This document shows, one piece after another, positions 4,707 to 54,896 of a DNA stretch of 64,000 nt (position 1 is its first letter; every line of letters starts with the position of its first letter). The notes below the pieces were generated by a model. It ran no database searches and was not told where the DNA came from. It was given only the letters and a program-made list of their open reading frames with translations. A program made the translations under genes and the position numbers. This DNA comes from Novakomyces olei (lineage: Eukaryota): NCBI GenBank assembly GCA_016906335.1, contig JADEYG010000001.1, forward strand, positions 682,001 through 746,000, in the 5' to 3' direction.

Positions 4707-6951
4707 TTAGTGAGCAAGACGACGTCTCGTCCCGACAGAGTTTGGAGCAAAATTATCGACTGGCAGAGCAGTTAATGACTCACTACCAAAAGAGCGACGA
4801 CGTAATCGCCGAGCAGCCCCTTGCAAGCTTGGGGGAACACTAATATTACCACACTGAGGAGCATCAAGGTCAGGGAAAGTGTCTGTCAGCCAAATCAAAA
4901 CTCCGTTACTCCATCCAAACCCGGGAACAACTTCATATTCGCCTCCAGAACCAGCAGCATCGGTCGCATTATCAGCATACTTCTCAAACATGGTTCCGTT
5001 CGCACTAGCAGAAATGTTTGCGAGTCTGGGCTGAGACTCTGTGGCCCCGCCGGTCGATCTCCAAGTGCAAAATGCGCTTGTCAAGTAGCGCGTGGCTACC
5101 TGGCGAGCCAAGGACGTGATTGGCCGAATATTTCCGGTATTATTACTGGCCAGCCGCTCGATATTACGGAGACCCTGCACGATAATGTACTGCAATGGTG
5201 GCCAAACATTTGGTTCGTCCCTATGGTTAGGGTTAGTAAATAAAAAACAAACAAGGGTTAGTATTAATTAATTCATAAATTAATTTAATTAAAAGCACTC
5301 ACCATTGCTGCCCACTCTCAAAATCGGTGGCGGGAACCCCACCGCGGTCTTGTGCCAGTAAAGATCTTACGGCACTGTAAGATTGGGCAGCGGCAGTAGC
5401 GTTGCGCAGAATACTGTCCGGCACAGCTCCGGCCCAGAAAGGATACAATTGGCTGACGGAAAACAGTGGCTGGGTCCCCGAGCCTGTATCATTGGGCAGG
5501 CGTGTTACTTGAGCGTGTGCCGTAATATTGTAGTCGTAGTAAGCGTTCAGCGAAGTGTTGTAAAACACGTTATACATTGCAGTTTTACGCGCCTCTGCTC
5601 TCGTACTCCAAGCGAGACTCAACAGCTCTGCCTGGAAGGCGAGAGTATCATTTGCATTATCACTCGTCCAATTATAAAAGGCGGCCATTGTTGCCTCGTT
5701 CATGTACATTATAGAGTTTAGATCCACAGGCACAATTGTGCGGACACGAATGTTCCTCAGTGGGAACTGTGCCGAAGTATTCAGGTTTTGTATCCATCGC
5801 GACGAGAAATCCCAGCCTGACTCTGCAGCGGAAGCCAAATCAGAGTAGGTACTTTGTATTTGAATGCTGCTCAGCGACGTCTCGTTGTGAGTAGTCTCAT
5901 AGTCCTCCACGTAACCTTCCGGCCGCGGCTGGTTATTAGGCACAGCGTACCGCTGGAAAAGGTACGTGGCATTTTTGCCCTGGATGCGGGCGGAAACGGG
6001 TACGGAACGGTGGGTGTACCACCACAAAAGTTCGCGTTCCAGCAGCGGCAAAGCTCGGCGCAGAAGGGAGTAGTCGTGTGTGTACTCTGTATAGATCCGT
6101 ACCATCTGGACGAGCAACGGTGGCTGAGAGCGGTTCAGGTAGTATACTCGGGCGCCGTTGGGGACAAAGCCGTAGACGCGTACGAGATCGAGAAAGTTTT
6201 CGATAATGTTCCGTGCCAAATGCTGGTAAACTGGGCCGGAGCGTAAAAGGCCCTCGATAATGAAAAAGGAGTCCCAATAATAAGGCTCATGGTACCGTCC
6301 ACCCGCCACCAAAAACGTTCGGTTAAGTGGTATAAACGAGGAGACACATCCAGTGCAATTGTTCTGTGGCACATACCGCCTCGTAAGTTCGGGCCAGTAA
6401 TCTACAACTTGGCTCACGAAATCTCGCAGAGTCGAGTTGGTTACGTTGCGCAGAAACTGAGCATCAGTAGTAAGGTTTGCGTCAATGCCGTCCCGGACGG
6501 GGACGACTTCGCTGCCGGATTCTCCAAAGTTTCTGTTTATAAAGGCGTGTAAACGGCTATCGTTCCTCACTACATAACCCTCGTTTGATCCGTTGGTGTG
6601 GCGGCTAGTGTTGGACCGAAATTCTTGCTCAAATTCGCGTAGAATCTGCCATACTGGCCGTCGCGTCGGCTGGTCTACAAACGTTTTCGAGTCAGTGTAA
6701 GGCTGAGCCAGCTGGATCGCTCGGAGCAGAGGCCCGTAACAGTATATGGGCGAATCGCAGGGGGCAATTACGTAGGCGGGGCAGCGGTTGCTGGCTGACT
6801 GGCCCGTACTGTTTGTGGATAGGGTAAGGTTCGAATGTGCCGTTGTCGCGTTCAGCAAGTACGGCACTGACGCGTTTGAACAGACATCTCCTACAAAGAG
6901 AGCGCTAGTACTCGCAGCGGCCGCCGCAAGTACGGCTACTTGGACAAACAT
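4707..6951 (-). CDS. Secreted trehalase, glycoside hydrolase family 37
   Basis: Signal peptide; motifs DSKTFVD, GGRYHEPYYWDS, PNGARVYYLNRSQPP, PRPEGY and AESGWDFSSRW. Intron 5302-5221 restores GQQWDEPNVWPP; GFGWSNG lies in the last exon. Confidence 0.93.
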
Positions 6952-9423: not shown

Positions 9424-10465
9424 ATGCAGGCCAAGGCTCAGCTATATCGACTCGTTGTTCTCGGCGAAGGTGGCGTTGGCAAGGTATAGATTTTCCGACA
9501 ACCGCTCAGATGCCGGCAGGCTACGACGAGACGGCATTTTGTTTGTTTCTCTTTCTCCGCTTTCCAAACTGCACTCCTCCTCTCTCAATGATAAAACAAT
9601 TTAGATTTGCAGCAGCTTACTAACGCATTCAACAGACGGCTCTCACCATTCAGGTACTAATGCTTTTTATCGGTTTGATTGCATTTGACTAATCATTTTT
9701 TATCCGTATGGGTTACGCGTTTAGCTCTGCCTAAATCATTTTGTTGGTAAGCGATCACCTGTCGACAATAAAACCACTAACTGAATCTGCAGAGGTACCA
9801 AAGACGCAAGAGCGTTAACGAGCTTACCCTTTAGACATACGACCCCACAATCGAAGATTCATATAGGAAACAAGTGTTTATCGATGGCCGGGCATCAATG
9901 TTGGAGGTGCTCGATACCGCGGGACAAGGTTCGTCTCTTAATTTGAATTAAACTCGTTGGCTTTTTTTTATCTTGATTTCTTTATCTTGATTTCGTCAAT
10001 ACTAAGCCATCTACAGAGGAGTACATGGCGTTACGCGACCAGTGGATCCGAGACGGTGAAGGTTTCCTCGTAGTATACTCTATATCCGACCGCAAAACTT
10101 TTAGCAAAGTCCGCGAGTATCGCGATCATATCAACCGGGTTAAAGACGCGCTAGTTGTGCCCATGATATTGGTCGGAAACAAGGCTGATAAGTCGCTGGA
10201 GCGTCAGGTAAGCACAGCAGAGGCTGCTGCGCTTGCCCGCAGTCTTAATATGATGTTCATTGAGGCAAGTGCGAAAATGTCTACCAATGTTGAGGAGGCA
10301 TTTTTCCAGGTTGTTCGTGCTATTCGGCGGAATCGAGAACCGGAGACCATAGCGCCTACTCAAAAGAATCGAAAACGTTCCAAGGCCAACAATTTGGGCT
10401 CTGGTAACCCTGGATCTGTCTCGTCCAAGAACGGGTCAAAATCCTCAAAATGTATAATTTGCTAA
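9424..10465 (+). CDS. rasB: Ras GTPase of the RasB/Ras2 type
   Basis: Exons 9424-9483, 9636-9653, 9725-9746, 9793-9794, 9835-9928 and 10017-10465 give [41 protein letters not shown]...DTAGQEEY...NKAD...EASAK, ending in the CaaX box CIIC. Confidence 0.93.
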
Positions 10466-11754
10466 ACCTGGTTTTTCCTCAATGGCAATGTAATTTCGTT
10501 CGAGGGAGAGGGGAAGGGTACTTCACAGCAACAAATACCAAATAAGCATGAACCGAATTCTCAAATAAAAGCAAAGGAACTGGGGTTTCGAGAAAGCTAT
10601 TACCTATGTTTTGGATAATTGATTGGGAGAAAAGCATATGTTATTTACCTGGCTCCGTGTATATTTTACTTTTCGCTAAAAAATCTCTGTTTCATTTCTC
10701 TCTGTTTCATTTCTTTTGGTTCACGTTCTATAACAACGTGAAGCTCTTTTCTGATCAGGAATGAAATAGATATTGGAATATAGAGCAACACAGGAGAATT
10801 GCTTGCATGAAAAGTTTTGTCGTGCCAGTGCAAGTGATAACTATTCAACATTTATCTCAGTTTGTCATTTATTTAAATTCAGTATCTACTCAAAGTTTAC
10901 CTGTTTTATTCTATGCTTATATATACTATTTTTTTCTTGTCATTTTTTTATTTAACCATCTTTCTCTTTTTTCCTAAAAATTTCAAAGATCGTCATGGGA
11001 TTTTCTGCACAAAGCTTATCATTATATATCTGACCCCTCTGACCTTCTTTTGTATGCTTCACTGGGGCATTATATTGTTCTATTTGTTTTAATGCAATGC
11101 GCAGTAAAAATTTTTTTTGTTTGGTATAAGAGGGAGGGGAGCGTTCTTCTTTTTTTATTGCTTTGTCTTGCCTTTTCTTTGTTTCCTTTCAATTTTGATC
11201 TCCCTCTAAATTTAATCGCTTTCGCCTTTTTCTTTTGAATTGATTTTTTCCTTTTGTTTTGCTGTACTTTTTCTTTTCGACGCGTTGAACGTTGGTATAC
11301 AGATTTTTACGGCGCTCAAAAATATAAGCGCTCAGAGCCGGTTGTGGGAGTTGATTGGGAAAGGACGACTGGGAAACAGACTCAGAAAAACGGAAAACCG
11401 TAAAATACTGAAACCAGATTTTAGAGGGGTCGTGTTGATGGCGGGACCAGCGCGGGCATAAGGAGAGTTTCAACGATAGACAATCGAGTGACTGCAATGA
11501 GCCCATCACACCTAGAATAGTTGATACAAATTTATTTTTCAAGCATAACAAGCAGTACGATAATCACGTAGATTTGTACTCCACGAGTACTAGATCTATA
11601 AATTGTCTATGAAGTTCAGGGCTAGGGTTAATCTGCTACATATAATGGACTGACATTATCTGATATCACGGCTCGAGCACGAAGAATTATATAATAAATT
11701 TAACCCTAATTAACCCTAATTAATAGACGTATTCCAAACAAATACAATGACGGA

Positions 11755-27400: not shown

Positions 27401-29032
27401 AAATTTCTGTTTTGTCGCCTCAATGTCCAAGCCCTCGTTCTCGTTTTTGCCGAAAATCTGGGGGAAGACTTCGGGGACAAGACGGCCAAGTAAAAGATTG
27501 GCATCCGTTACCGTCAGAGGACCTCCTTTCTGGTATTGTTAGTCAGATTATACCAAAGTAAATAATAAAACTATAAAACTATAAACAATAAACTAGCGAA
27601 ACAATAAAATAAAAGTCAAGGAGCCATTAAACACTTTTTTCAGTAGAGACTTACGCGATAGCACGCGGGTCCTGGATGGGCAGAAGCGCTCTCAGGACCA
27701 GCCTGAAACATGCCGTTCTTGAAGAAAAGCATAGAGCCTCCACCAGCAGCCACAGTATTGATATCCAGCTGAGGGCTCTGTATAGTTACGCCGGCTGTTG
27801 TTGTCTCAAAAACGTGCTCATACTGGCCGTCGAACCGACTCACGTCGGTAGAAGTGCCTCCCATGTCGAATCCGATGACGGGGATCCGTGTATTCGGATC
27901 AAAACTGGTAAGAGCATAGCCAACAACTCCGCCCGCCTGTAATTAGCATAAAGAATAGCAAAAAGAATAGAAATTGAAGGTTCAAGTGATTTAAACTCGA
28001 CTAGTTTAAATAATCAATTTAAATAAAATGCATGTAGAGCATTATTGAATATAGAGATTATGGCTTACAGGTCCAGACAAAATAGCCTTCAACCCCGAAA
28101 ATCGTTTCATATCAACCAGCCCGCCATCACTTTGCATGAACTCGCAACGTGCTCCACGGCCACCTTGCAAGTCAGTGTCTCCCAGCCCACCTTCAAACCC
28201 GGAACAGAAGCCGTCAATATACTTTTGTATTACAGGCGTGAGGTAAGCGTCTGCGGTGGAGGAAGTGCCCCTTGAAACAATTTTAATCATAGGCATCAGC
28301 TGGGAGGATAGACTCACGTGAGTGAACCCCAGGCTTTTTGCAATTTCTCCAACAGCTATTTCGTGCTCCGGGAAAGTGTAAGAGTGCACAAGACAGACGG
28401 CCACACTACGAATCCCCGTGTCGTAAAGTGCCTGTAACTGTTTCCGCACAGCCTCACGGTCGATACGTTTAAGTATGCGCACAACTTCACCAGATATGCC
28501 CTTAACCAAGTCGGGGTCTCCCTCGATATTCACAGGTTGGGGGTCTGGATCTTCTGCGTACTCCTCCAGGGTCACACGCTCATCGATCTCCACAACAGAA
28601 TCGTGAAGCACATCTGGCTTTGAGATGGAAAGATCGAAAATCCGAGGCCGTGACTGATTCCCGATATTGAGCAAATCACGGAAACCTCGAGTAGTGATAA
28701 ACGCGCAACGCTCACCTTTCCGCTCGAGTAAAGCATTCGTGGCTACAGTTGTGCCCATTCGTATACTCTCAATTGGCCGCGTATCTATTTTATCTTGGCG
28801 CGCAAGCGAGCGGGAAAGAAACTTTTCCAGTATACGTCGAATACCTTCTCTTGGAGCATCCTCATAGTTTCCCGGATCAACTGATAAAAGCTTTATTACA
28901 ATATCTTCTTCGCCGTCACAGTAACCCACACAGTCGGTAAACGTACCTGACTCGTTAGCATAAAGTGGCCTTTAATGTTGCCAATTGCCTACCGCCGCGA
29001 TCAATAGCAATGCGAATCTGTTTGGCCGCCAT
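24433..29032 (-). CDS. OXP1: 5-oxoprolinase (ATP-hydrolysing)
   Basis: Motifs [71 protein letters not shown] and TPGGGGYG. Four introns. Confidence 0.96.
26822..27071. repeat. Compound pentanucleotide microsatellite (GAAAT)n/(TAAAT)n in the last OXP1 intron
   Basis: About 50 units are visible. Confidence 0.95.
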
Positions 29033-29254: not shown

Positions 29255-29507
29255 CAGTACAATCTAAAAGTGGCACGAGGTGCTACTGTGCTCGGCGCTC
29301 AGCCTTAAAGTCGGTCAATGTTACTCTGAAACCGTATATTAACGTAATGTATGGCAAAAAAGGTTAGAACTTGATGATATATTATGGTGATTATAACATG
29401 GGGATGCATGACAAAGTTACTACTATCTATCAATCAACATGTTAATATGACATTAATCGTAGTTATTCCTCCTAGGCTCTCCTCCTAGACTCTACCAATC
29501 AGTCACA

Positions 29508-31483
29508 ATGCTAACGAACGTGAGGTTGCGACCTTGGCGCGCGGCGTCGTACCTCAGGACGGCGCCGCAGCTACCGCAACGTCTAGCCTCGGGGTTCGCT
29601 GCTTCTCAGGAAAAAGTAAGGTTTACTAGAAAGTGATGGTCGAGATCTAACTGAGTAAGGTGCTGTCAGTGCCTTTGCAAAACGAGGATCTTCAGATCTA
29701 TGCAGTAGTGCAGAACGAGATCAAACGACAAAAGCAGTCTATAAATTTGATTCCGTCTGAGAATTTTACCTCGCGCGCAGTGATGGACGCGCTTGGCTCG
29801 CCCATGCAGAACAAGTATTCTGAAGGTTACCCGGGCGCTCGCTACTATGGCGGGAACGAATTCATTGACCAGGCAGAATTGCTTTGCCAGAAACGTGCAA
29901 TCGAACTTTTTGGACTGCAGTCCGATGCTTGGGGAGTTAACGTTCAGGGTATACATCATCATTATTTTCTACTAATTTATTTGTTAAATTTAGATATTTA
30001 TTATATTTATTTTTAGTTCTTGGGTTTTCTTTATAGCATCCCTTTCACGCTGTACTGGAAAATGCCCTTTTTTACAAGCTCAATTTAATTTTTGTTTGAA
30101 TGAGAATACCCCTCAATTTTGTGTGTGCTTACATCCAGCTCTCTCCGGATCGCCTGCTAATCTGCACGTGTACTATGCACTTTTGAAACCTCACGAACGC
30201 TTAATGGGTCTGGATCTGCCCTCGGGTGGGCACTTGTCACATGGCTATGCCACACCAACGAAAAACATTTCTGCTGTCTCCACTTACTTTGATAATCTGC
30301 CGTATCGTGTAAACCCGTCAACGGGAATAATCGATTATGACGAGCTGGAAATGCTGGCTCAGCGGTTTCGGCCCAAAATTATTATCGCAGGAACAAGCGC
30401 TTACTCGCGAAAACTCGACTATGCTCGATTTAGACGAATAGCAGATTCAGTCAATGCATATCTTATGGTAGATATGGCTCATATTTCTGGTCTTGTAGCT
30501 GCTCGCGTACTGCCTTCGCCCTTTGAGTACGCTGATGTTGTTACTACGACGACGCATAAATCTTTGGTACTTGAAAATTGTTAACTTTACATGTTATTCA
30601 AATTATTTCAGCTTTAATTTATTATTCATTTATTTTTTCATAATTTTTAAGTTTTTAAATTCTCGTTTATTCATTAGCCATAATATTATTGTGATATGGG
30701 TGCTAATTTATAGCGGGGACCACGTGGGGCGATGATATTTTTCCGTAAAGGCGTACGCTCAGTCGACAAGAAGGGGAATGGTAAGCAATATAGATTTTTC
30801 AATACACGATTTAAGAAAAATGTTTATGTATGCTCTAACAAATTCGTCAAGAAATCCCGTATGACCTTGAAGGCCCAATCAATTTTTCAGTATTTCCTGG
30901 TCACCAAGGTGGCCCACACAACCATACGATAACTGCACTTGCAGTCGCACTAGGACAGGCAATGAAACCCGAATTTCGCGAGTATCAGAAACAAGTTATT
31001 AAAAATGCTGAAGCTATGTCTGATGCGTTCATTGAGCGGGGATACGATGTTGTATCTGGAGGCACAGATAACCATCTGATTTTGGTGGATCTAACAAACA
31101 AGGTATGATCAATTTTATTTTCTCCCCGTCTAACTACTAAATAGGGAATCGACGGTGCTCGGGTAGAGAGGGTATTAGAGCTGGTGAATATCGCGGCCAA
31201 CAAAAACACTGTCCCTGGAGATAAATCAGCCTTGATCCCTCACGGCCTTCGACTGGGGGCGCCGGCAATGACCACTCGTGGACTCACGGAACCAAAATTC
31301 AAAGAGATTGTGGAATTTATTGATCAGGCAATTAACCTGACTATCAATATAAACAAGCAAGTTCCGGGAAAGAAGTTGCGAGACTTTAAAGAGCATCTTG
31401 GTAATGGTGAAAATGTACCGGAAATTTCTGTTTTGAAGCAGTTAGTAGTCGAGTTTGCTGATGCTTTTTACTGCCCTCATTAG
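29508..31483 (+). CDS. SHM1: Serine hydroxymethyltransferase, probably mitochondrial
   Basis: Arg-rich presequence-like exon 1. Motifs [52 protein letters not shown] and NKNTVPGD. Five introns. Confidence 0.95.
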
Positions 31484-31982: not shown

Positions 31983-34900
31983 ATGGCGCCAGCAGTGCAT
32001 TTCCAGGAAGCTTCAAGTGAAAAGGTACTATTGTATTAATTTCCTAAGAACAGTTCTAACAAGTGCCATAGAAGCCCAGGTCCAAATCACGATCGCAGGG
32101 CGACTCTTTCAACGCCCTGCTCAATCCTATATACAAGGGCAAAGCCTTGACAGATTCCGTTGATACGGTCAAGGTAACCTTATTGTATTTAAATCTTTTT
32201 ATTTATCACTTATAGGACAAATGGAACTTGCTACCGGCCTTTCTCAAAGTCAAAGGCCTGGTCAAACAGCACCTCGACTCCTTCAACTACTTTGTGGACG
32301 TTGAGCTTAAAAAAATTGTCAGGGCAAACCAGGTGGTAACAAGCGATGTTGAGCCCTGGTTCAGGCTTCGGTACACTGATATCTATGTCGGAAGGCCTAC
32401 TCGAACTGACGCTGATTCTGTGAACCACAGTATCACTCCGCAAGAGTGTCGGCTTCGAGATCTAACTTACTCTGCCCCAGTCTTCGTGGACATTGAGTAC
32501 ACTAGGGGCAAAGTAATTGTACGTAAACGCGGAGTCTCTATCGGCCGTATTCCCATAATGTTACGCAGTAACAAGTGTGTGCTTTCGCAGGAACCGGCGT
32601 ACAGGAAAACGTATGAGCAGCATATGGCAGAGCTTGGTGAATGCCCTCTCGACCCGGGGGGGTATTTTATAGTTAAGGGTACGGAAAAGGTCATTCTTGT
32701 CCAAGAGCAGTTGTCAAAGAACCGAATAATCGTGGAGGCAGAGCCTAAAAAAGCGTATGTGCAAGCATCCGTAACCTCATCCACTCACGAACGCAAATCC
32801 AAGACTTATGTGCTTACGAAGAACGGAAAGCTTTACCTCAAGCACAATAGTATAACAGAAGATTTGCCTATAGTTCTTGTGCTAAAGGCAATGGGAATGC
32901 AAGCAGATCAAGAAATTTTCCAGATTGTATGTGGGTCCGATGCAGTTTACCAGGATCTTTTTGCTGTAAATATCGAAGAATGTGCAAAAGTCGGTGTCTT
33001 TACTCAGCAGCAGGCTCTCGAGTACATTGGCGCAAGGGTCAAGGTCAATAGACGATCTGGGTTCCAGCGTCGGCCGCCTCAGGAAGAAGCTCTGGAGTTA
33101 TTAGCTGCTATTATTTTGGCACATGTCCCGGTAAACGATTTAGATTTCCGACCAAAACTGGTTTATGTGGCAATAATGACCCGTCGTGTCCTCATGGCAA
33201 TGGCCAATCCTCAAATGGTGGATGATCGGGATTACGTGGGCAATAAACGTCTTGAATTAGCGGGCCAATTGCTCTCTCTACTTTTTGAAGACTTATTTAA
33301 AAAATTTAATTCCGATTTGAAAACAAACATAGACAAGGTGCTTAAAAAGCCCAATCGAACTCAAGAGTTTGATGCCTATAATCAAATTGCCCTGCACGAT
33401 AATCATATAACACAGGGCATGATTAGAGCGATTTCTACGGGAAATTGGTCACTGAAACGGTTCAAAATGGAGAGGGCTGGTGTCACTCACGTGCTGTCAC
33501 GCTTAAGCTACATCTCTGCTCTCGGCATGATGACCCGAATTTCCTCACAGTTTGAAAAGACCCGCAAAGTGTCGGGTCCACGAGCATTGCAGCCTTCACA
33601 GTTTGGTATGCTCTGTCCCTCAGATACACCAGAGGGAGAGGCATGCGGCCTCGTCAAGAATTTGGCCCTAATGACTCATATTACTACGGATGATGAGGAG
33701 GAGCCGATTATAAGAATTGCCTTTTCCCTCGGTGCGGAAGACGTTCGGCTCTTGTCTGGCCACGAGCTTCACTCTCCGGGTGCTTATGTAATCTATTTGA
33801 ACGGAGTCATTCTCGGGATCACCGCGTATCCGACCCGGTTTGTCGGCATGTTTAGAGAATTGCGGAGAAGCCGATGCATTTCCGAGTTTGTTGGAATCTA
33901 TGTGAATCACCACCATCGAGCTGTGCAGATCGCATCCGACGGCGGTCGGGTTTGCCGACCGCTTATTATAGTGCGGAATGGCAAGTCGCTGGTCACGGCT
34001 CGGCACATCCGATCACTGAAACTGGGCCGCATGACGTTTGACGATTTTCTGGCTCGAGGCCTTATAGAATACCTCGATGTCAATGAGGAAAACGATGCTT
34101 ATATTGCTATTTATGATTCCCAAATTACGGCAATGACCACCCATGTGGAGATTGAGCCTTTTACCGTGCTTGGAGCCGTTGCCGGCCTTATCCCTTATCC
34201 GCATCACAATCAATCGCCTCGAAACACTTATCAGTGTGCAATGGGAAAACAAGCAATCGGAGCAATTGCTTACAATCAGCTGAATCGCATCGATACGCTG
34301 CTATACTTGATGGTCTACCCGCAACAGCCGATGGTTAAAACGAGGACGATTGAGCTGATTGGGTACAACAAACTGCCGGCCGGACAAAACGCTGTAGTCG
34401 CTGTAATGAGTTATTCCGGTTATGATATTGAGGATGCACTTGTTTTGAACAAGGCCTCAGTGGACCGCGGGTTCGGAAGGTGTCAGGTTATGCGGAAGCA
34501 TACTACGGTTCTGCGCAAGTACGCGAACGGCACTTTTGATCGGCTCGGCGATCCGGTAATGGAGAATACAAATGTTTCAAACAATAATACGAATGATAAA
34601 GCAAAACCTGTTAAAACGTGGAAGCATCGAGCACTAGACGACGATGGACTCGCATTTCCCGGTGAACGTATGGAGTCGGGCCAAGTCTGTGTGAATAAGC
34701 AGTCGCCCATAAACGCAACCGACAACAGTCTACCCGTCCGTGGACAGTCAAACGTTAACCCTAGCCCTAACCCTAACCAGAGCGGTTCGTTAGGGTTTAA
34801 GTCTACGGCTTTGAGCTACAAGTCACCAGAGCAGGGCTATGTGGACAAGGTTATGCTGACCACATCGGACAGGGACGAGACCCTGATTAAAGTGTTGATG

Positions 34901-35644
34901 CGGCAAACCCGACGGCCGGAGCTCGGCGATAAGTTTTCCAGCCGGCATGGTCAAAAGGGAGTTTGTGGAATCATTGTGCAGCAGGAAGATATGCCGTTTG
35001 ATCAGAACGGAGTTGTTCCCGATATCATTATGAATCCGCACGGATTCCCATCCCGAATGACTGTGGGTAAAATGATTGAGTTGCTGGCGGGTAAAGCGGG
35101 AGTGCTTTCCGGAAACTTGCAGTACGGAACTGCCTTTGGTGGCAGCAGGGTTCAAGACATGTCAGAGATCCTGATCGCCAATGGCTACTCGTACTCTGGC
35201 AAGGATATGCTTACGAGCGGAATAACTGGTGAATCACTCGAGTCTTATATTTTTTTCGGGCCGATTTATTATCAAAAGCTGAAGCATATGGTCTTGGACA
35301 AAATGCACGCAAGAGCGCGTGGACCTCGGGCTGTCTTGACCCGACAGCCCACGGAAGGCAGGTCGCGTGACGGAGGATTGAGGTTGGGAGAGATGGAGCG
35401 CGACTGCTTAATTGCCTATGGTGCATCTCATCTTTTACTGGAGCGTTTGATGTTGTCCAGTGATAAATTCGACGTTGATGTATGTGAAACTTGTGGCCTG
35501 TTGGGATATAATGGCTGGTGTGGTCGCTGCCAATCTGCTGCTGGGATTGTGAAAATGACGATTCCTTACGCAGCCAAACTGCTTTTCCAGGAACTCATGA
35601 GTATGAATATTGTGCCAAAATTGGTGCTGGAAGATGATATGTAG
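31983..35644 (+). CDS. RET1: RNA polymerase III second-largest subunit
   Basis: Motifs [44 protein letters not shown] and [21 protein letters not shown]. Two short 5' introns (32025-32071, 32174-32215). Confidence 0.97.
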
Positions 35645-53401: not shown

Positions 53402-54896
53402 CTACCTTCGCCGCCTCTCAGAATGCCCATCACCATACCGACTATAGGTTTGGCCGTGCTGTCGGCGACTTGAAGAGCCGTGTCGATCCGGTCGGCCGGG
53501 AGACCGTTCACGCTCCCGAGAATCGCCTCGCCTTGAACGGTAATATCCTTCTCTGCGACCAGGATCTCGGTGATCGCTGTGTCTCTCGGGAATATATGTA
53601 TCTCCCTCTGTCGAATGATGGTGCCTGCTTTCCTCTCTATCTCGCCTTGAACGCCTTTCTCGGCTGTGTCTTCTTGGCTTTTCATATTTGCTCCTTCCTT
53701 GCTCTTCATCGTCTGCAAAGATATAATCGTGCCGATGGCCATTAGGCCCATAATCGCGACGAGACTCGGCAACTCGGCCACGAGTACTATCATGATGATC
53801 GCCTCTCGGTTTGTGTAAATTAACTTTGAGCGGATCAAACCGATCCTTCCAATTACGAACAATGCCTTGACTAAAATCAACATGTATACGACGGTCATCA
53901 ACCAAAACATCCTGCATTTTAAAGTAAGCTTGTTCACAGGCTTCTTTTTCCTCAAACTCAATAAAAGCATATTGCAGACTGTCCCCTGTAACCTTGTCGT
54001 GGATTATCTGACAGCTAAGGATCCTACCGAACCGTGAAAAAATAAGCTCCAAGTCTTCTTCCGTAGTTACAGGATTTAGTTTACAAACAAAGAGTACATT
54101 TTCAGGAGGTTTCATTTCAGCAAAGGGTAAATCGCCCACCATTTCAAGTGTGAGCGCCTGTGCCCGGGCTTCGCGTTCCCTTCGTCGTTGCTCTGCCGTT
54201 TCCTCATCCACATCTTCATCAAGCGCTTCGTCCTCACCAATTCGTACAGTTGCCAGCTGAGCTTTTGTAGGTACTGGACTCTCTGGCGGTTCCACCATTC
54301 CGGGTGCTTCACGTTAGTATAATCAGAGAAAAAAAGAATTAAAAAATTAAAAAATTAAAAATAAAAGAATAGTTAGACCTAGACGTACGATCAGGAAATG
54401 GGTCTTCCAGCACTATTGTATGCTTTATGCGGATGTCCTTGAAAGGCTGACCATTTCGGTCACAAAATGCACTGTTGATAGTGTCCAAAGTTTCGAATCC
54501 TTCAGCCACGCGTCCAAAAACAGTGTGCTTTCCATCCAGAATATCAACGTCGTCACCCAAAGTTACAAGAAACTGACTTGCACACTCACTGTCTTCTTCA
54601 CCGCTCGCAATCATCGACACAGTACCGCGCTCCCTGTGTTTCAAGTCATTTTTCTCAGCGGAAAAGTAACGGGGACCCGTGCCTAACAAGCCCCAGACAG
54701 AGGTGCCACCGTCGCCAGTGGGTCCAATGGGATCACCTGTTTGCATGGAAAACCCTTGCTGTACATTGAAAACAGGGCTGAAATTGTAATACTTGAGTTT
54801 GCACAGTTTGAGAAAGTTTAGACATGTTTTCGGAGCTGCTTCAGTAAAGAGATCAATCACTATATCTCCCGCTGTCGTGTCGAGAAGAACGCTCAT
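53402..54896 (-). CDS. rct1: Cyclophilin-RRM protein (PPIL4/Rct1)
   Basis: Cyclophilin domain [16 protein letters not shown]...[12 protein letters not shown]; intron 54388-54307; [13 protein letters not shown]...YAFIEF...IHVDFSQ; RS/RD-rich tail. Confidence 0.93.

Follow-up and report, generated by a model that had tools for sequence, protein, structure and literature searches.

How the glutamate codon of a conserved Ras motif is put together is the question raised by a small GTPase gene at 9424-10465 on the forward strand of the window (the whole 64-kb stretch of DNA that was analysed). In this gene the HFVETYDP signature is interrupted, within its Glu codon, by an 88-nt segment (9747-9834) with more than one possible pattern of splicing. 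The original prediction held that the segment contains an obligatory exon of only two nucleotides, and this is also the model best supported by our analysis, being the sole canonical solution that restores the motif, the one with the highest profile score, and an arrangement with a low rate of chance occurrence. From the sequence we put the probability at roughly 0.8 that the best explanation is indeed an obligatory 2-nt exon, AG, lying between two U2-type mini-introns.

Layout and identity of the Ras2 gene

Read from its sequence, the gene at 9424-10465 (+) comprises six exons and belongs to the Ras2/RasB type of small GTPases, with a spliced product of 214 aa. Its five introns (152, 71, 46, 40 and 88 nt) have GT..AG ends in all five cases. 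The introns on either side of the 2-nt exon are called A and B here, and the parts of the gene model are as follows.

9424-9483 (+): exon 1, 60 nt, with the ATG start and the P-loop; the N-terminus matches those of orthologues
9484-9635 (+): intron 1, 152 nt, GTATAG...TTACTAAC...ACAG, phase 0
9636-9653 (+): exon 2, 18 nt, encoding TALTIQ
9654-9724 (+): intron 2, 71 nt, GTACTA...TTTAG, phase 0
9725-9746 (+): exon 3, 22 nt, encoding LCLNHFV and closing with the G that opens the Glu codon; ends ...CAT TTT GTT G
9747-9792 (+): intron A, 46 nt, GTAAGC donor, ACTAAC at 9776-9781, CAG acceptor
9793-9794 (+): putative exon 4, 2 nt, AG, completing the Glu codon (G|AG)
9795-9834 (+): intron B, 40 nt, GTACCA donor, TAG acceptor (TTTAG)
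9835-9928 (+): exon 5, 94 nt, starts ACA TAC GAC CCC and ends with an extra G; Pfam Ras positions 28-58
9929-10016 (+): intron 5, 88 nt, GTTCGT...ACTAAG...ACAG, phase 1
10017-10465 (+): exon 6, 449 nt including the stop TAA, with NKAD, SAK and CIIC-stop; Pfam Ras positions 60-161

The Pfam Ras profile (PF00071) matches exon 6 with an E-value of 9.6e-29 and exon 5 with an E-value of 1.7e-6, over the profile positions given above, and the G1-G5 motifs as well as the C-terminal CaaX-type end (KCIIC-stop) are all intact in the spliced model. Exon 6 finds its best matches (42-64% identity) in fungal proteins labelled RAS2 or small G-protein Ras2 at source, and the closest relatives of the product are proteins named Ras2 that have the HFVETYDP signature in common with it. 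By these signs the gene belongs to an ascomycete and codes for a small GTPase of the Ras2/RasB type, with its structure intact. The host can probably be placed near the Taphrinomycotina, without a close relative in the protein databases, since the RNA polymerase III subunit encoded in the window finds its matches in Pneumocystis, Schizosaccharomyces, Protomyces and Lipomyces.

This subunit, the second-largest of the polymerase, is encoded at 32216-35644 (+) by a single open frame of 1142 codons; its best identity in the database is 74-76% (Pneumocystis, Schizosaccharomyces, Protomyces), and a collection of 5.8 billion clusters contains no protein of the host itself. A gene at 53915-54779 (-) combines a cyclophilin-type prolyl isomerase with an RRM domain, the two being separated by a candidate intron of 82 nt (54307-54388). 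Repeats also occur at the Ras2 gene itself, as direct repeats of a 13-nt unit with a 14-nt period within intron 5 (9968-9994) and as a perfect 15-nt tandem duplication in the 3' untranslated region (10685-10714).

The coordinates and motifs originally given for the 88-nt segment proved correct to the base when checked against the sequence. The Glu codon of HFV-E-TYDP lies shortly before the effector loop and would be divided between G at the end of exon 3 and AG of exon 4, after which exon 5 continues with ACA, and the mature mRNA would accordingly carry GTTG-AG-ACA. Both flanking introns have a donor, a branch-like motif and an acceptor of their own, and the AG upstream and the GT downstream of the 2-nt exon are canonical. 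The ACTAAC of intron A is perfect, with its branch A (9780) 12 nt before G 9792, and the first AG after it is CAG, i.e. a complete 3' splice site stands in the middle of the segment. Intron B has two branch-site candidates, TTAAC (9815-9819) and CTTAC (9823-9827), and a donor with consensus bases only at +1 to +3, the AG at -2/-1 being supplied by the micro-exon. On translation, skipping AG causes a frameshift with a stop soon after, and retaining intron B leads to an in-frame TAA at 9816-9818, both as had been claimed; a stop is also reached if intron A is retained, and the 214-aa open frame exists only with AG (9793-9794) included.

Several features count against the micro-exon. The GTACCA donor is weak beyond +3 and the branch site of intron B is an imperfect match to the consensus; introns A and B together make up a segment of 88 nt, the size of one ordinary intron and the same as that of intron 5; and both lie at the short extreme of the window, where the introns checked measure 42, 125 and 132 nt, with a probable fourth of 82 nt. 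The predicted RNA fold of 9736-9845 is unremarkable (z = -0.38), and Rfam gave no match at gathering score across the whole 64-kb window.

The introns used for this comparison of lengths were accepted where the coordinates of a Pfam profile run contiguously across the intron. They alone were retained because a catalogue of introns built on open-reading-frame logic was too noisy, yielding 179 candidates on the + strand against 100 and 107 in reversed and complemented controls, and was rejected.

31103-31144 (+): serine hydroxymethyltransferase (SHMT) intron, 42 nt, GTATGA...CTAAC...ATAG; Pfam SHMT 340|341
27530-27654 (-): oxoprolinase intron, 125 nt; Hydantoinase_A 157|158
27937-28068 (-): oxoprolinase intron, 132 nt; Hydantoinase_A 62|63
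5221-5302: probable trehalase intron, 82 nt; the upstream piece ends at profile position 424 and the best downstream Trehalase stretch is 467-507

Because the 42-nt SHMT intron is confirmed by homology, introns of 40-46 nt are in use here. The gene to which it belongs has several exons (29463-31480, +), and a probable 44-nt intron (29616-29659) lies just after its presequence-like N-terminus.

Splice solutions for the segment and alternatives to the predicted 2-nt exon

To see which products the segment can give, we enumerated all GT/GC..AG solutions with one or two introns in 9725-9927 (15 donors, 11 acceptors, introns of at least 25 nt). There are 102 open, in-frame solutions, and only the combination of 9747-9792 with 9795-9834 yields HFVETYDP. 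Both flanking motifs survive in three rivals that add little or nothing between them: a single 92-nt intron (9743-9834, GTTGGT..TTTAG), canonical and in frame, which joins LCLNHF|TYDP and deletes Val-Glu; a single 74-nt intron (9761-9834), which replaces Glu with GKRSP; and an alternative 2-nt exon, AC (9804-9805), which gives HFVDTYDP. The claim that only inclusion of AG produces the conserved sequence thus stands for canonical sites, but it had overlooked the in-frame single intron of 92 nt, which is the solution that a gene finder would pick. Automatic annotation will mis-model this Ras2 gene, with Val-Glu deleted, junk inserted or the N-terminus lost.

The cDNA junction expected under the AG-exon model is GTTGAGACA, and that under the AC-exon model is GTTGACACA. 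A non-canonical 86-nt intron with GT..TT ends (9747-9832) would leave an mRNA identical to that of the micro-exon model, because the two bases preceding ACA are also AG. Since the same mRNA results from either AG, a cDNA junction alone cannot place the exon, and the junction that had been proposed as a check cannot show whether the AG kept is that at 9793-9794 or that at 9833-9834.

The products were scored with a profile HMM built from 43 of the best 120 Ras2 matches, those with an intact P-loop and motif, with the following results.

Micro-exon AG: 302.8 bits
AC variant with a GC donor: 301.4 bits
GKRSP insertion: 291.1 bits
Val-Glu deletion: 289.8 bits

The AG model is thus ahead of the in-frame single-intron rivals by 11.7-13 bits, and of the variant with AC and a GC donor by 1.4 bits. 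How often the arrangement turns up by chance was estimated both from 100,000 dinucleotide shuffles of the 88-nt segment and from 18,262 88-nt windows of the 64 kb.

AG, a Glu-completing dinucleotide and GT, with both halves at least 30 nt: 2.0% of shuffles, 0.5% of windows
The same with a branch-like motif upstream: 0.5% of shuffles, 0.09% of windows
The same with CTAAC required: 0.17% of shuffles, 0.04% of windows

An AG/2-nt/GT arrangement of this kind is unlikely to have arisen by chance.

Against this background the rival explanations can be weighed. Splicing of the 92-nt stretch as a single ordinary phase-0 intron, with TTAAC before its TTTAG end, would give a 212-aa Ras2 that lacks Val-Glu. 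Such an intron is canonical (GT-AG), in frame, free of stops and of a length typical of the window, its donor is of the GTTNGT type also found at intron 5 of the same gene, and the HF|TYDP junction that it creates is present in four of 120 public Ras2 models. We nevertheless consider it improbable. Its product scores 13 bits lower under the 43-orthologue profile, and its use would pass over a stronger donor, G|GTAAGC, only 4 nt downstream, as well as the perfect ACTAAC and the CAG 3' site inside the intron; by the usual rules of pairing with U1, G|GTAAGC (9747) outranks T|GTTGGT (9743) as a donor. The AG that restores the frame and codes for Glu would become a coincidence, with a rate of 0.04-0.5%. 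As for the public models with HF|TYDP, one from Rhizophagus irregularis (P0053) has this junction but a second model of the same species (P0054, a cluster of 33 sequences) carries HFVETYDP, which suggests that HF|TYDP is an annotation artefact.

The remaining explanations fare worse. If the frame problem came from an assembly or sequencing error, or from decay of the gene copy, splicing could be ordinary, but the segment is no homopolymer, the remaining exons, splice sites and GTPase motifs are intact, and the layout ACTAAC-CAG|AG|GT would be left as an unexplained coincidence. No 1-nt change combined with a single canonical intron restores the motif, so that an error would have to consist of a 2-nt insertion at the exact exon edge or be accompanied by loss of a residue, and we regard this explanation as quite improbable. 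Very improbable, in our judgement, is a single 86-nt intron with GT...TT ends that keeps the AG at 9833-9834: it yields the same product as the micro-exon model, but the complete canonical signals of both sub-introns would go unused, and GT..TT does not correspond to a known class of spliceosomal introns. The poorest prospect of all is the exon AC, which would be flanked upstream by an intron of 57 nt (GT..AAG) and downstream by one of 29 nt (GC..AG). This open, in-frame solution comes within 1.4 bits of the AG model, at the price of a GC donor, a 29-nt intron, and use of the third rather than the first AG past the branch site; it also places Asp where intact orthologues have Glu (Lys in one, P0120).

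Two further candidates were rejected. A U12-type intron is ruled out by the donor, which is not of the U12 type, and programmed ribosomal frameshifting or RNA editing of a single-intron product has no signal here, nor is either needed.

Probable order of splicing and public fungal Ras2 models

If AG is an exon, introns A and B would each be recognised separately by intron definition; exon definition is impossible over 2 nt, as the factors that read the 3' site on one side and the 5' site on the other have overlapping footprints. The two introns would most likely be removed one after the other, because two spliceosomes cannot occupy signals 2 nt apart, and such an ordered, intron-defined removal appears plausible. 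The AG at 9793-9794 would do double duty, supplying both the two bases that follow the acceptor of intron A and positions -2/-1 at the donor of intron B (GAG|GTA), where -3 to -1 would read GAG whichever intron goes first. Were intron B removed first, intron A would face CAG and then, 2 nt further on, a second AG; the first AG, preceded by C, should beat GAG. G at -3 is the least favoured base at 3' splice sites, and a GAG acceptor occurs at none of the five introns of the Ras2 gene model and at none of the four homology-checked acceptors elsewhere in the window. The idea that use of the distal AG forms an on/off switch for Ras is unsupported, the distal acceptor being GAG, a form absent from the acceptors checked; a minor frameshifted product made through the distal AG is conceivable. 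The 88-nt layout as such is compatible with two origins, gain of a new intron beside an old one or division of an ordinary intron, the former because GAG|A is a good proto-splice site.

The best 120 Ras2 protein matches were sorted by their sequence around the HFVETYDP junction, with the following counts.

HFVETYDP or a one-residue variant, i.e. [NQ]H[FY][VI][EK][TS]YDP: 45 of the 120 models (39 by script and 6 with QHFVETYDP)
No N-terminal part: 40 of the 120 models
Aberrant between GVGK and DSYRKQ: 35 of the 120 models, comprising the types below
TIQ|TYDP: 10 models
HF|TYDP: 4 models
HFVG...TYDP: 4 models
HFV plus an insert plus (E)TYDP: 4 models
HFV(E)|DSYRKQ: 4 models
GVGK|TYDP: 3 models
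Other junctions: 6 models

Among the 80 public models that have an N-terminal part, 35 are thus aberrant between GVGK and DSYRKQ. The HF|TYDP and HFVG...TYDP junctions are the same as those of fallback splice solutions enumerated in this window, and the models that have them come from four subphyla (Glomeromycotina, Mucoromycotina, Kickxellomycotina and Zoopagomycotina). Species whose models fail at the junction include Rhizophagus irregularis, Glomus cerebriforme, Radiomyces spectabilis, Martensiomyces pterosporus, Calcarisporiella thermophila, Thamnocephalis sphaerospora, Mucor circinelloides 1006PhL and Linnemannia schmuckeri. Faults of the kinds expected from mis-annotation here are seen in many public models of fungal Ras2. 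The pattern hints at the same 2-nt exon, or some different systematic obstacle, in further fungal phyla.

That the 2-nt exon is old and recurrent in fungal Ras2 genes, with a phase-1 intron position in the Glu codon and a phase-0 position before Thr both occupied, is a tentative proposal that we think somewhat doubtful. Recurrence, if true, would explain why models fail at the same junction in distant phyla, and the exon would be among the most deeply conserved ultra-short exons known, beside the effector loop of a core signalling protein. The aberrant models also fit a situation in which the tiny exons of 18 and 22 nt defeat the predictors, and predictors could also have mistaken the AG of the GAG codon for an acceptor. 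The 2-nt layout is not universal, since many genome-derived Ras2 models are correct.

Searches of other collections returned no further Ras2 genes. When metagenomes were scanned with exon 6, 46 loci came up at 27-53% identity, none of them Ras2; 17 of the 46 have [YF]DPT[IL]ED, and all of these are of other Ras-superfamily types with an uninterrupted F-V-x-x-Y-D-P. An alignment scan of prokaryote genome contigs gave two loci, both eukaryotic contaminants other than Ras2, and a scan of viral contigs for Ras2 gave none.

Comparison with known ultra-short exons and compact introns

Fungi and plants are already known to have exons of 1-3 nt, and the Ras2 case adds no new category. For Coprinopsis cinerea, an annotation based on long reads (Cell Genomics 2025, PMC12230235) lists 13 exons of 1 nt, 57 exons of 2 nt in 50 genes, and 27 exons of 3 nt; according to the same report, omitting exons of this size usually creates a premature stop, and automatic gene models break at them. 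Both cases concern internal ultra-short exons in nuclear fungal genes, but C. cinerea is a basidiomycete whose exons are documented by full-length transcripts (PMC12230235), whereas the Ras2 exon belongs to an ascomycete and is predicted from the genomic sequence. Our literature search, which did not extend to the list of 50 genes in C. cinerea, found no description of an ultra-short exon in a ras gene.

A close parallel is the 1-nt exon described for the cytochrome P450 CYP621A of Fusarium (Nelson and Syed 2026, PMC12940212). Like the predicted Ras2 exon it is obligatory, lies inside a conserved motif and stands between AG and GT; both were revealed by a mismatch of phase between the flanking exons, and in both the exon bases fit both splice-site consensuses. 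The Fusarium exon differs from the 2-nt Ras2 exon in its length, in being kept in at least 20 orthologues and in its confirmation by SRA reads, and the intron length there, taken together, exceeds twice the median (PMC12940212), whereas the 88 nt of the Ras2 segment are ordinary. In Arabidopsis, APC11 has a single-nucleotide exon (Guo and Liu 2015, PMC4674806) that is, like the predicted Ras2 exon, constitutive and too short for exon definition, but it is a plant exon of 1 nt and was demonstrated experimentally with GFP fusions. Its authors propose intron definition with consecutive removal of the introns, and they cite the 9-nt exon of potato invertase, where the downstream intron is removed first (PMC4674806).

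The likeness to twin introns drawn in the original prediction does not hold in the strict sense. Stwintrons of the Pezizomycotina (PMC5639578, PMC9024468) resemble the Ras2 segment in that two short U2 introns occupy a compact segment and are removed consecutively. In a stwintron, however, the donor, branch site or acceptor of an external intron is broken up by an internal one, and the whole segment is lost (PMC5639578, PMC9024468). The Ras2 segment falls outside this definition, because introns A and B are complete, do not overlap or disrupt each other's signals, and would leave 2 nt between them; excision of the full 88 nt would put the reading frame out.

Recursive splice sites or ratchet points (PMC6224609, PMC4674806) share with the Ras2 segment a 3' site followed directly by a 5' site, the two being used consecutively, but a classical ratchet point leaves an exon of zero length, while in Ras2 the AG would be kept. 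When AG|GT at 9793-9796 is taken as a recursive site, the enumeration gives only products that are out of frame or have the motif destroyed; such use shifts the frame, and the site is thus not a zero-length recursive site. With splice sites only 2 nt apart, the 88-nt Ras2 locus offers a compact natural substrate for the order of intron removal and for the choice between CAG and GAG.
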